Below are positions 6,068-61,938 of a DNA stretch of 64,000 nucleotides, piece after piece. Numbering within the stretch: the stretch's first letter is position 1; each line of letters opens with the position of its first letter. Made by a program: the position numbers and the translations under genes. The stretch lies in assembly GCA_964016885.1 (NCBI GenBank), contig CAXHJY010000333.1, forward strand, positions 1-64,000, written 5' to 3'. The stretch comes from Eledone cirrhosa (Eukaryota). Under the pieces are notes generated by a model. The model saw nothing but the letters and a program-made list of their open reading frames with translations. It ran no database searches and had not been told where the DNA came from.

Positions 6068-6385
6068 GTAGAAGTTTTAGTTAAATTGTTGGGATACAAC
6101 AAGCAAATATTTTTATTACTGAATAAAGCACTCAACAAATTTTTGGAGTAAAAAAATTTGCATAAAAGACCAATAATAAAATTAATAACCCCACTATCCG
6201 GGAGCTTCCAACACACATGGTCGCATTCTTTTAAGGGTATGTCAATATTTGTTTATAAAACTGATCTATATTATATTTTATGTGATGAAAGCGCACCATA
6301 ATTTGCTTTGGTGTCCTTGAAATATGTATAATGAAATAAATATGGTTTTATAAATATAGTTTCCATTTATTAATATATTGTATAT
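6068..6385 (+). mobile_element. PLE 3'-end/pseudo-LTR fragment (family B) with inverted terminal piece and mutated HHR
   Basis: Homologous to 31826-32143, 27950-28204 and 50806-51221; HHR core here is GTGATGA (~6282). 6068-6150 is the reverse complement of the sequence that follows the HHR at 51176-51221. Confidence 0.7.
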
Positions 6386-6536
6386 ACATATATATATATA
6401 TATATATATATAGATATATAGATATATATACATATATATATATGTAAGTATGTATGTATACGTACATACATATATGTATACAGACGTACAGTAGCATGCA
6501 TATACGTTCAACGTTCAACTATCTGGCAGATGGGTA

Positions 6537-6581
6537 AACGGTGCTGATGATAGCTAACATGCTTGAAACTAATACATCGTT
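6537..6581 (+). ncRNA. Type I minimal hammerhead ribozyme (copy 1, stem III mismatch)
   Basis: AACGGTG-CTGATGA-TAGCTAACATGCTT-GAAAC-TAATA-CATCGTT; stem I AACGGTG/CATCGTT. Confidence 0.75.
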
Positions 6582-7073
6582 CCTGTGTCAGTGTTGAACA
6601 AAAAGGTGACGTGGTTGCCTTAACACCGTATGGCATAAATTCAGGCTGTTCGATTTGTTGACAAACAAACGAACAAAGCAGGCGGTATAATAAACGCCGG
6701 CAAAACTGATGCGTACATACATGTATGTGTAACTGTATGCATATGTGTATATATGTGTGTATATATATATATATATATATATATATATATATATATATAT
6801 ATATATATATATATATATATATATATATATATATATGCATGCTACTGTACGTCTGTATACATATATGTATGTACGTATACATACATACTTACATTTAAGT
6901 AAGTGCCATACTAAGAGTGAGAAATGAAATTTCGTTTTCATTTTTTTCAACTTATCGTTTTCGGTATGCCTGACCGATTTAACTCACTCAATATGCAAAT
7001 TAGGCTGCTCAGCCGTTAAGTTTCATAAGGAAAGTATATACTTTCGAACGTTCAACTATCTGGCAGATGGGTA

Positions 7074-7118
7074 AACGGTGCTGATGATAGCTAACAAGCT
7101 TGAAACTAGTACATCGTT
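7074..7118 (+). ncRNA. Type I minimal hammerhead ribozyme (copy 2)
   Basis: AACGGTG-CTGATGA-T-AGCT-AACA-AGCT-T-GAA-ACTAGT-A-CATCGTT; palindromic stem III ACTAGT, GUA cleavage triplet. Confidence 0.88.
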
Positions 7119-7562
7119 CCTGTGTCAGTGTTGAACAAAAATGTGACGTGGTTGCCTTAACACCGTATGGCATAAATTCAGGCTGTTCGATTTGTTGACA
7201 AACAAACGAACAAAGCAGGCGTTATAATAAACGTCGGCTAAACTGATGCGTGCATATATGTATGTGTACCTGTATGCATATGTGTATATATGTGTATATA
7301 TATATATATATATATATATATATATGCATGCTACTGTACGTCTGTATACATATATGTATGTACGTATACATACATACTTACATTTAAGTAAGTGCCATAC
7401 TAAGAGTGAGAAATGAAATTTCGTTTTCATTTTTTTCAACTTATCGTTTTCGGTATGCCTGACCGATTTAACTCACTCAATATGCAAATTAGGCTGCTCA
7501 GCCGTTAATTTTCATAAGGAAAGTATATACTTTCGAACGTTCAACTATCTGGCAGATGGGTA

Positions 7563-7607
7563 AACGGTGCTGATGATAGCTAACAAGCTTGAAACTAGTA
7601 CATCGTT
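7563..7607 (+). ncRNA. Type I minimal hammerhead ribozyme (copy 3)
   Basis: Identical to 7074-7118. Confidence 0.88.
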
Positions 7608-7786
7608 CCTGTGTCAGTGTTGAACAAAAAGGTGACGTGGTTGCCTAAACACCGTATGGCATAAATTCAGGCTGTTCGATTTGTTGACAAACAAACGAAC
7701 AAACCAGGCCTTATAATAAACGTCGGCTAAACTGATGCCTGCATATATGTATGTGTACCTGTATGCATATGTGTATATATATATAT

Positions 7787-57611: not shown

Positions 57612-57755
57612 AAAACATCAGTAATATAAACAAAACAACAGTAATATAAACAAAACAACAGTAATATAAACAAAACAACAGTAATATAAACAAAACAACA
57701 GTAATATAAACAAAACAACAGTAATATAAACAAAACATCAGTAATATAAACAACA
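57612..57755. repeat. 20-bp minisatellite, about 7 units
   Basis: CAGTAATATAAACAAAACAA. Confidence 0.95.
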
Positions 57756-57773
57756 ATAATAGTAATAAAAATA

Positions 57774-58112
57774 ATGGTTTCTACTATAGGCACATGGTCA
57801 GCAATTTTAGGGAAAGGAAAGTCGATGAAATCCACACCAGTGCATTACTGGTACCTTATTTAATTGATCCCGTAAGGATGAAGGTCAAAGTGAACCTCGC
57901 CGGAATTTCAACTCAGAATGTAAATAATGTCTCAAATATTGATTTCTTATATAGGCACAAAGCCAGCAATTTTGGGGGAGAGGAAAGTCGATTAAATCAA
58001 CCCCAGTGTGTGACTGGTACTTTATTTTATCGACCCCGTAAGGATGAAAGGCAAAGTTAACCTCCATGCTGCAAAGCATGGCATCCGCACCTCTATCGAT
58101 ACTGCCAATGGT
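57774..58112 (-). mobile_element. Two SINE copies (~57774-57920, 57950-58112)
   Basis: Reverse complement of the SINE core. Confidence 0.82.
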
Positions 58113-58196
58113 GCGAGGTCAGCCATTTTGAAGAATTCGGAAAGTCGATAAGATTATGAAGCAAATAACACACCTCCACACTGTAAAGTATATAGA

Positions 58197-58624
58197 CTGA
58201 CCAAGATACTCTCATGGAATGATCAAATGAAGGTTATTTTACAACATAGTCCCTGGAAAGAAACAATGCAGTTATTAATAGGAAGAGTTGAAATTAATGT
58301 ATGAAAGATTTCACAGCTCTAGCATCACTCCTTCATAAGCTGACTAAGATACTCTCATGGAATGACCAAGAGAGGTTTATTTTACAACATAGTCCCTGGA
58401 AAAAAATAACAATGCAGTTATTAATAAGAGTTGACGCTAATGCAAGCAAGATTTCACAGCTATATCATCTCTCCTTCATAGGCTGACCAAGATAGTCTCA
58501 TTCAATGACCAAATGAGGGTTATTTTACACAACATAGTCCCTAGAAGGATGGAATACAGTTATTAATGAGAAGAGCTGAAATGAATGCACGCACGATTTC
58601 ACAGCTCTAGCATCACTCCTTCAT
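58197..58624. repeat. Three 143-bp tandem units
   Basis: CTGAC(C/T)AAGATA at 58197, 58340 and 58483. Confidence 0.9.
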
Positions 58625-59039
58625 TCATAGTCCGCCTATGAACTGTTCAGCCGACATCTCATAGATAGATAGATAAATAGATAGATCGATAGATGGATTG
58701 TGTGATGGGTAAAAAGGGGGTCGGGGTTAGAAGTGGTGGAACGGGGAAACGTTGATGACGAAATAATTCTCACGTACTTCTATTGAAGCAATGGCAATAT
58801 CTGTAGATATTAAAATAGTGACTAGGAAGAAAAGATCTTTCGAGAACAAAACGAGAACAGCCATTGCTACAGCAGAGTAACAAAGACACCAAGAAATAGA
58901 TATCAGGGTGGTACAGGGGAAGAGGGGGGAGGACACACATATTTCGACAATGTTCTCTATGTCTGGAATCATCGATAAAATGCCATAACCTTCCTAGCCT
59001 TTTCATACCGAAATTGAATGAATCGACAATTAATTTGTT

Positions 59040-61560
59040 TATGTATATATATGTATATATATATATATATATATATATACATATATGTATATATATGTAT
59101 ATATATATATATATATATACATATATGTATATATATGTATATATATATATATATATACATATATGTATATATATGTATATATATATATATATATATACAT
59201 ATATATACATATATGTATATGTATGTATATATATATATATATACATACATATATATATATACATACATATATATATATATATATATGTATATATATTAAT
59301 ATAAATACATACACAGATATATATATATATATATATATATACATACACACACACATATATATATATATATATATATATAATATATATATATATGTACATA
59401 CACACATATATATATATGTATATATATATATATACATACACACATATATATATATGTATATATATACATATACATACACACATATATATATATTTATATA
59501 TATATATATATGTGTGTATATATATATACACATATATATATATACATATATATATATTTATGTATATATATATACACATGTATATATACATATATATATA
59601 TATATATATATATATATATATACATATATATATATATATATATATATATATATATATATATACATATATATATATATATATATATATATATATATATATA
59701 TATAATATATATATATATATACACACACATATATATATATATATATATACACATATATATATATACATATATATATATAAATATATATATATATATTTGT
59801 GTATATATATATACACATGTATATATACATATATATATATATATATATTTGTGTATATATATATACACATGTATATATACATATATATATATATATATAT
59901 ATATATATATACATATATATATATATATATATATACATATATATATATATATACATATATACATACATATATATATATATATACATATATATATATATAC
60001 ATATATATATGTGTACATATATATATATATACATATATATATGTGTACATATATATATATATACATATATATATGTGTACATATATATATATATACATAT
60101 ATATATGTGTACATATATATATATATACATATATATATATATGCATATATATATATATGTACATATATATATATACATATATATATATATGCATATATAT
60201 ATATATGTACATATATATATATATGTATATATATATATGCATATATATATATATGTACATATATATATATATGTATATATATATATGCATATATATATGC
60301 ATATATATATATATATGTACATATATATATATATGTATATATATATATGCATATATATATGCATATATATATATATGTACATATATATATATATGTATAT
60401 ATATATATGCATATATATATGTATATGTATATGTATATATATATATATATACATGTATATATATATGTGTATATATATATGTATATATATATATATACAT
60501 ATATATATATACATATATATATACATGTATATATATATGTATATATATATGTATATATATATATATGTATATATATATGTATATATATATACATATATAT
60601 ATATGTATATATATATATACATATATATATATGTATATATATATATACATATATACATATATATATATACATATATATATACATGTATATATATATATAT
60701 GTATATATATATGTATATATATATATACATATATATATATGTATATATATATATACATATATACATATATATATATACATATATATATACATGTATATAT
60801 ATATGTATATATATATACATATACATATATATACATATATATATATATATATACATATATATATTCATATATATACATATACATATATATATATACATAT
60901 ATATATATATATATACATATATATATTCATATATATACATATATATATATACATATATATACATATATATACATATATATATACATATATATACATATAT
61001 ATACATATATATATACATATATATATTCATATATATACATATATATATATACATATATATACATATATATACATATATATATACATATATATACATATAT
61101 ATATACATATATATACATATATATATACATATATATATACATATATATATACATATATATACATATATATATACATATATATATACATATATATATACAT
61201 ATATATATACATATATATATATGTATATATATATACATATATATATATGTATATATATATACATATATATATATATGTATATATATATACATATATATAT
61301 ATATGTATATATATATACATATATATATATGTATATATATATACATATATATACATATATATATATATAAATATATATATATGTATATATATATAAATAT
61401 ATATATATGTATATATATATAAATATATATATATGTATATATATATAAATATATATATATGTATATATATATAAATATATATATATATGTATATATATAT
61501 AAATATATATATATGTATATATATATACATATATATATGTATGTATATATGTATATATAT
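59040..61560. repeat. 2.5-kb (TA)n/(TACA)/(TATG) array
   Basis: Direct sequence. Confidence 0.97.
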
Positions 61561-61938
61561 TGGAAAATGTGTGTAATCCTTGGTACAGTTAGGTATATTA
61601 ATTAAATATAAATTAAATTTATTTTCTTCACAAAATCCAAAAAGAATTTTTCTTAAAAAAAATTATTTTATAAATTAAGTTGTTGGTTGTTGGTTAGGTC
61701 TTAGGAGTTCTTGGTTAACGTAGGAGGTATTGTTTCGTTTTTAGAAAGACCTTTCACGCTGAGGTGCGCTTGTCAAACTGATGTGTATGGGGTGTGTTGT
61801 TCTATATATAGGGATTTAACATGTCTGTGGTGTGGTAGGGGTTTCTTTTCTCCCCCTTTAATAAGTGCATGTGTGTAGGTGTGTTGAAAAAGTGTTCATA
61901 GCAGTAATGAGTTGAGACGGTGAGTAATGAGTTGACAC
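61561..61938 (-). mobile_element. Probable inverted pseudo-LTR of the downstream PLE
   Basis: G/T-rich on plus (A/C-rich on minus, like the element's sense strand); minus-strand HHR-like TTGACAA-GCGC-ACCTCA-GCGT-GAAAGGTC at ~61748-61776. The matching 3' copy would lie beyond the window. Confidence 0.5.

Follow-up and report, generated by a model that had tools for sequence, protein, structure and literature searches.

Inverted Penelope-like element copies in TA repeats of Eledone cirrhosa and a bulged hairpin motif beside their fixed ends

We analysed a stretch of 64,000 nucleotides (nt) from Eledone cirrhosa (assembly GCA_964016885.1, contig CAXHJY010000333.1, positions 1 to 64,000), hereafter the window, in which a first-pass annotation had listed 13 sites with 3' sequence joined in inverted orientation to a 5' end within (TA)n. 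These sites are almost certainly insertions of TA-targeting Penelope-like elements (PLEs), and sequence features make it likely that most, possibly all, of the elements belong to the Hydra clade. Their arms lie head-to-head, border TA runs and stop at two fixed positions, here named X and Y, and a bulged hairpin motif lies 0 to 8 nt past X. In relatives from other samples the hairpin occurs in pairs, and copies end just ahead of hairpin 1 or hairpin 2. The fixed ends of each family and the paired hairpin beside them appear to be the new element of these findings; the rest is largely established. The signature as first described is largely known biology for Hydra-clade PLEs, since insertion into (TA)n, 5' copies in inverted orientation and a tail on one side only have been published for that clade. 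The annotation's reading of the sites as PLEs in TA repeats stands, and its account did not include the hairpin or, in each family, the pair of fixed ends that it adjoins.

Inverted layout, fixed ends and the hairpin motif

The 13 sites were sorted by masked self-BLAST, family alignments and arm-to-arm local alignment. Head-to-head inversion was confirmed at 12 of them from arm and family alignments; at 61561 neither an inverted match nor a hammerhead core was found in 61562-61930, and the 3' end of that element lies beyond the window. Eight sites carry inverted duplications with arms of 44 to 441 nt that are 92 to 100% identical in arm-to-arm local alignment: 63/63 at 6442, 44/44 at 20307, 53/57 at 43531, 438/441 at 43756, 47/51 at 46277, 53/55 at 46761, 83/90 at 48979 and 114/115 at 50806. 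At the other four (6068, ~28130, 31826 and ~33730), family alignments place the tail inverted against upstream sequence with little or no duplication; local alignment gave a 43/48 partial duplicate at 31826 and chance-level arm matches at the remaining three. Both arms point outward in the sense of the element. The 12 sites represent six families: A (6068, 28130, 31826, 50806), B (6442), C (20307, 43756), D (33730, 46277), E (43531, 46761) and F (48979). Five of these (A, C, D, E and F) have one tail hairpin in common, so that the description of the families as unrelated was wrong for 11 of the 13 sites.

Families A, C, D and E each have two fixed ends: one arm stops at X and the other at Y. 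These ends lie at 46171 and 46254 in family C (83 nt), 46527 and 46598 in D (71 nt), 43647 and ~43725 in E (~78 nt), and about 85-90 nt apart in A; as exceptions, the copy at 50806 ends within the tail and that at 33730 stops short of X. The largest family C copy comprises an inverted arm (43756-44196, minus strand) that starts at X and runs inward, its counterpart, the pseudo-long terminal repeat (pLTR) at 45731-46171 (plus strand), with a hammerhead-like core at 46102, and the tail at 46172-46254 (plus strand), whose hairpin begins at 46174; the 3' half of this hairpin reads GAGA in the window and GAGC in the read consensus. A short family C copy (20307-20524, plus strand) has a 44-nt inverted X arm, a forward hammerhead-like region and a tail. 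The family E copy at 43531-43725 (plus strand) consists of an inverted X arm (43531-43587) and a forward arm with tail, with the hairpin at 43653-43678; a second one lies in the opposite orientation (46625-46817, minus strand), its tail arm on the minus strand and its X arm (46763-46817) on the plus strand. A further family E copy without inversion (2545-2678, plus strand) has TA on both sides and a diverged relative at 56673-56800. In family D, the copy at 46277-46598 (plus strand) has an inverted X arm from 46277, a hammerhead core at 46335 (minus strand), a spacer and a forward arm (46477-46598) with the hairpin at 46536-46556, and a short inversion at 33733-33811 joins a tail end on the minus strand to an upstream piece on the plus strand.

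The family A copy at 50801-51219 (plus strand) has an inverted X arm (50801-50915), a spacer and a forward arm with a partial tail and the hairpin at 51180-51201. Two inversions have their tail on the minus strand and their X arm on the plus strand, namely 6068-6380, without duplication (hairpin from 6149), and 31826-32141 (hairpin from 31908, minus strand); in a third, also without duplication (27953-28203), the X arm is on the minus strand and the tail arm, which begins inside the hairpin, on the plus strand. The copies at 6068 and 31826 are 87% identical over 304 nt, composite junction included (6072-6368 and 31830-32129). Segmental duplication was ruled out for this pair, as the flanks were without similarity in self-BLAST; either the inverted unit is itself mobile or the site is a hotspot. 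The X arm begins at the same CTATCC in three family A copies. Family F, related to A (48857-49207, minus strand), has a tail arm on the minus strand with a hammerhead core at 49043 and the hairpin, and an opposite arm (49118-49207) interrupted by a piece of a short interspersed element (SINE).

AT-rich microhomology had been proposed for the arm ends. It holds at the outer X ends, which have 2-4 nt in common with TA (e.g. ATAT, TAT), and only sometimes at the inner joint. There, ATATA was found at 6500 and GAGACCAA at 44189-44196, while the joints at 20350, 43588 and 46761 have 0-2 nt of microhomology; 46345-46476 and 50922-~51000 are spacers. The sequence GAGACCAA is likely an 8-nt microhomology, not AT-rich, common to the arm and the open reading frame (ORF) that follows, because relatives start their alignment with E/D/Q-T-N, matching its codons for a conserved ETN.

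The motif past X has the form RCTC-stem-YY-GAGY-AC. In the window families the motif directly 3' of X starts with ACTC or GCTC; a loop comes next, followed by two bases rich in pyrimidine and by GAGY. Its distance from X is 2 nt in family C, 5 nt in E, 8 nt in D and 0-7 nt in A; the motif is also present in the family F tail. In relatives it reads GCTC-[stem-loop]-TT/TC/TA-GAGCAC. A search of 77 loci from other samples, related to the family C ORF, gave 107 sense matches in 50 loci against 26 antisense matches and 25.8 expected by shuffling, and a strict pattern gave 90 sense against 12 antisense. Among 74 distinct hairpins, three upper-stem positions pair in fractions of 0.96, 0.72 and 0.65, compared with maxima of 0.85, 0.61 and 0.57 in 5000 permutations and 0.24-0.34 in slid registers; kinship among the loci makes these covariation counts non-independent. 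Hairpin pairs were found in 27 cases, 55-83 nt apart. Copies end 3-8 nt ahead of hairpin 2 at six loci (L012, L022, L026, L034, L040 and L053) and 2-6 nt ahead of hairpin 1 at three (L017, L057 and L077). A first mapping pass had mostly picked cross-family alignments (5/17 ends within 4 nt); the nine ends comprise seven of 18 diverging rows from a second pass by k-mer extension and two rows from the first. In addition, three of 15 contig-end rows end 1-3 nt ahead of a hairpin. Inspection by eye revealed the motif in four of six curated Hydra consensus sequences: Hydra-1_Ajap has the twin hairpin at its start, one hairpin lies at the end of Hydra-2_Ajap and of Hydra-2_Amil, and Hydra-1_Crog has a compensated GCCC/GGGC form. 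As a small and weak non-Hydra control, no hairpin was found in seven loci with a Neptune-type reverse transcriptase (RT) (nine minus two overlapping; 21 kb).

Reads and contigs were compared over 43440-46830, using two contig sets and two raw Illumina runs of restriction-site-associated DNA (RAD) from another study; the data sets listed for this region included none of RNA. In the two runs, 2410 and 2571 reads depart from the reference at 46171, the family C X, into (AT)n (consensus agreement 0.66 and 0.63), and about 1000 reads per run depart at 46528, the family D X, with a mixed consensus and (AT)n in run X5; RAD read depth is not copy number. Short reads also contain strand-switch joints (43926-45254, 44058-45315 and 46097-46207) and short head-to-head forms joining 43830 to 46097 and 43588 to 43653, the first base of the hairpin.

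Clade assignment and TA flanks

The ORF of family C (44189-45172, plus strand; 327 amino acids) encodes the end of an RT, the thumb, a CxCX5C linker and a GIY-YIG endonuclease, the RT core having been lost by 5' truncation. It has 285 relatives, with ~95% aligned to RT-thumb/GIY-YIG proteins; the named relatives of the window RT are mostly molluscan. The linker, a CxxC ahead of the conserved E, a CxH behind the conserved N and the absence of CCHH are Hydra-clade traits according to the clade descriptions in PMC8557442, as are a hammerhead near the 3' end and (TA)n targets, a preference listed there for 26 of 27 Hydra families, Hydra-1_Obim of Octopus bimaculoides among them. An inverted 5'-truncated copy is recorded in the same source for Penelope-13_HM. 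The earlier reading as PLEs with TA targeting is thus supported by both the endonuclease features and these published targets. Naiad identity was ruled out, the endonuclease being C-terminal; Naiad elements have an N-terminal GIY-YIG and no canonical hammerhead. Pfam returned no family for 44189-45172, and its GIY-YIG match for 13809-14198 was below threshold.

The RWK/DKT region is lost from the window copy, so motif counts were taken by proxy from the 35 of the 77 loci with more than 1 kb in-frame upstream: ADK[TS] was found in 35/35, an RWK-like motif in 33/35 by a loose pattern and DKG in 0/35. For families A, D, E and F, which are ORF-less in the window, the clade is assigned from the shared hairpin alone. 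Hammerhead core motifs were seen in A, B, D and F, and the 3' half only, by eye, in E; in family C the core appears as CAGAAGA in place of CTGANGA in 3/3 copies (20366, 43825 on the minus strand, and 46102). Rfam showed no hammerhead among the 150 of 483 matches listed, which were below threshold and microsatellite-driven. TA lies 50-95 nt past the hammerhead core at 9/31 loci against a 2% null, a range picked post hoc that carries little weight. A second Hydra-type GIY-YIG (13809-14198, minus strand), with CxxC and CxH and absent from the sites that the annotation listed, is truncated before the linker; its element (13346-14198, minus strand) is 5'-truncated against a 3.9-kb TA array and has an internally repeated 3' untranslated region (UTR; 12840-13860), and no inversion was seen in it.

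The window is microsatellite-rich, with pure TA runs of at least 8 nt making up 22% of it. We counted an end as TA-adjacent if it lay at most 12 nt from such a run. The claim of TA flanks was upheld: 22/25 outer ends are TA-adjacent, against 9/32 ends of 16 SINE-like pieces taken as a control (Fisher p=5.5e-6), 8.1% of all non-TA positions and 2/18 ends of other repeats, with the reservation that the sites are a selected set and that adjacent elements share TA runs, which makes the ends non-independent. Two of the three misses lie 7 and 12 nt from TA by corrected coordinates, and the third is the SINE-cut right arm at 48979. PLE-like pieces absent from the first-pass annotation have 9/13 TA-adjacent ends. 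Any target site duplications of the elements are masked by the TA flanks. The SINE-like family is abundant (704-1115, 22536-23139, 30493-30679, 36401-37011, 40169-40880, 51730-51841 and 57769-58109), and its 9/32 ends near TA are themselves above the 8% background. Hammerhead-bearing 3' ends at 18300-18568 and 29643-29780 adjoin (CA)n or (TG)n, not TA.

Proposed priming beside the hairpins and alternative explanations

We favour, with some reserve, an explanation in which the sites are 5'-truncated, likely mostly Hydra-clade, insertions in (TA)n whose arms end at X and Y through internal priming beside two hairpins. The element protein would nick both TA strands, and reverse transcription would be primed internally at two tandem RNA hairpins, both bulged, in each case directly on the 5' side. 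The 3' ends of the two cDNAs would then be joined head-to-head by microhomology or end joining. If the Y-primed cDNA got no further than X on a single RNA, a plain inversion would be the product (6068, 28130, 31826 and 33730); if it passed X, or if a second RNA were used, the product would be an inverted duplication with a one-arm tail, as at the other eight sites. The four plain inversions agree with the expected Y arm ending at X or 3' of it, with a short upstream piece added at 31826. From the sequences we infer that the protein may bind the hairpins and that a second hairpin would lie past Y in the window's own families; priming of both strands beside the hairpins is suggested by the two-site initiation of the Anolis element PAc in vitro, combined with the positions of hairpins and ends. 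More tentatively, the hairpin pair may be a ruler: a dimer, with one hairpin per subunit, would start the cDNAs a few bases 5' on opposite strands, and the inversion would be programmed. Hairpin spacing would then set tail length, and any RNA with a hairpin pair could be inserted into TA repeats.

Several observations weigh against this explanation. No window copy extends past Y, and hairpin 2 is therefore unseen in the window. The window hairpins are diverged: they show ACTC/GAGT, the family C loop is long, and the upper stem is weak in families D and E. Minimum free energy folding of the tails recovers the hairpin inconsistently. Apart from the seven rows that diverge 3-8 nt ahead of a hairpin, the others of the 18 do so at 12, 18 or 34-2461 nt, two without a downstream hairpin; we take these to be probable cross-family or internal matches, without row-by-row assignment. 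Five of the nine relative ends border AT-rich DNA instead of TA runs, and one borders (ATTT)n. The loci behind the covariation are related to one another, family B and 61561 fall outside the hairpin rule, and the hairpin was not visible by eye in Hydra-1_Obim, nor in the incomplete Hydra-1_Amil. Finally, none of the listed reads or contigs in the four sets spans the window's own joint at 44196.

The same ends might also arise by ordinary PLE insertion. In that case the endonuclease would resolve a DNA intermediate and so leave the tail, the motif would be recognised as DNA or as a cruciform, and self-priming or template switching would produce the inversion. We regard this as unlikely, if the most serious of the alternatives. 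Tails are attributed to endonuclease-mediated resolution in the account of PMC8557442, palindrome self-priming is proposed in that of PMC3846280 (Arkhipova 2013), and the two family E inversions have their turning points no more than a few nt from a common site; recognition of RNA and of DNA cannot be told apart from genomic ends alone. However, the motif is strand-specific and lacks symmetry, having some G-U pairs and a constant 2-nt bulge on its 3' side, and PAc tail ends coincide with RT start sites in vitro, as presented in PMC11167929. It is appreciably less probable that the hairpins function in ORF translation or transcription and that ends lie beside them because AU-rich linkers anneal to TA primers. 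An ATG does follow hairpin 2 by 3-40 nt in 27/27 pairs, and the short match between X ends and TA would suit annealing, but nine loci with differing linkers end 2-8 nt ahead of a hairpin, some without TA flanks, and other AU-rich stretches of the 3' UTR are not fixed ends.

That the inversions are long-read fold-back or assembly artefacts, an objection raised with the original claim, is highly improbable. Two short arm pairs are 100% identical and the 44196 joint is without an independent read among those listed, yet six of eight arm pairs differ in sequence, and copies that are ~80-87% alike have their ends at matching family positions. The objection was not borne out at the family level because independent Illumina reads carry the same ends and strand switches. 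The annotation had further proposed a feedback loop, compatible with priming beside the hairpins, in which insertions lengthen TA arrays, the arrays draw more insertions and the genome is shaped in this way. Each insertion splits one TA run into two targets, a chain of four elements (43531-46817) is parted by short TA runs only, 3/3 TA blocks above 2 kb abut a PLE end, and PLE-adjacent blocks are longer than others (29 against 80 blocks, p=0.005). However, longer arrays are larger targets, and such length bias gives the same difference in block size; 19 of the 29 adjacent blocks are shorter than 100 nt, and these data contain no sign of TA expansion by the element. We consider the loop improbable.

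In the L1 twin priming of Ostertag and Kazazian, both target strands reportedly prime on the RNA, giving a 5' inversion with a microhomology joint. In L1 one priming site is the poly(A) and the other an internal site that varies, whereas both priming sites here would be fixed and internal. Another parallel is PAc, a Poseidon element of Anolis (Frangieh et al. 2024, PMC11167929): in the experiments described there, both strands of AT-rich DNA are cut and extended, the tail is delimited by two internal sites at which RT starts, and a stem-loop lies at the start site. PAc differs in its clade and in having its sites inside the ORF, beginning in an AC-rich stem-loop; the portion of that account considered here proposes neither a repeated hairpin nor a link to inversion. 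The Penelope families of Adineta vaga, as portrayed in PMC3846280, resemble the window copies in their head-to-head inverted pLTRs, optional one-arm tail and microhomology joints, and differ in their 31-bp tail, their target site duplications in non-repetitive targets and their self-priming model. PLEs in general are described in PMC8557442 and PMC3846280 as typically having inverted 5' copies and, at one end, a tail of 30-40 bp. Unlike the Hydra clade as characterised in the former, the elements here have tails of ~70-90 nt, a paired hairpin beside both ends that is unmentioned there (the word hairpin has no match in its main text and supplement) and the CAGAAGA core of family C. The twin hairpin is not described in the literature searched, the scope of which was outside subscription papers, Repbase notes and figures, and that search found no paper on PLE twin priming.

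The origin of inverted pLTRs and one-sided tails is named as an open question in the discussion of PMC8557442 (Craig et al. 2021). The covarying doubled motif predicts both ends within ~8 nt across many animal samples and makes this question directly testable. By our reasoning, the hairpin may also serve as an ORF-free marker for the many short Hydra-derived fragments to which repeat libraries may give the label unknown, SINE or MITE.

Family B, the Neptune-type element and other repeats

Family B (6442-7786, plus strand) is retrozyme-like and consists of a 63-nt inverted arm and ~2.6 tandem hammerhead-bearing units of 489 nt; no RCTC/GAGY hairpin was seen in it. The 489-nt units (6505-7786 and 8868-8982) contain a minimal hammerhead and enclose a (TA)n tract whose length varies; they appear retrozyme-like and non-autonomous. 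Another hammerhead-bearing family is represented by 8056-8837 and 9445-10244, which are 87% identical, arranged tail-to-tail and have TA at their ends.

The element at 61562-64000 (plus strand) is the 5' part of a Neptune-type PLE, with ORF1 at 61911-63140 and an RT ORF from 62978. DKG is present in the window, and the linker (CX2-5CxxC) and CCHH-type motifs were seen only in the relatives P0123 and P0125. The two ORFs overlap in the -1 frame at a hairpin-enclosed T TTT TTA heptamer (63038). Locus L078 encodes an ORF1 homologous to it (26% identity, E 6e-11), and there too the overlap is in the -1 frame, in a T-rich stretch near 1200. This evidence makes a programmed frameshift likely, and frameshifting of this kind is noted for some PLE type in the legend of Fig. 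1 in PMC8557442. PLE-like sequences also occur in bacterial-labelled records (L078-L082; P0154, P0166 and P0213), which probably reflect animal contamination of the assemblies.

Fragments at 27307-27924 and 19436-19653 resemble 3' ends of long interspersed elements and are 92% identical at their ends; we take them to be of the RTE type. Long trinucleotide-based minisatellites at 39223-42933 and 21141-22385 give rise to spurious Thr- or Gly-rich open frames, and 23140-26010 is a 41-nt satellite.

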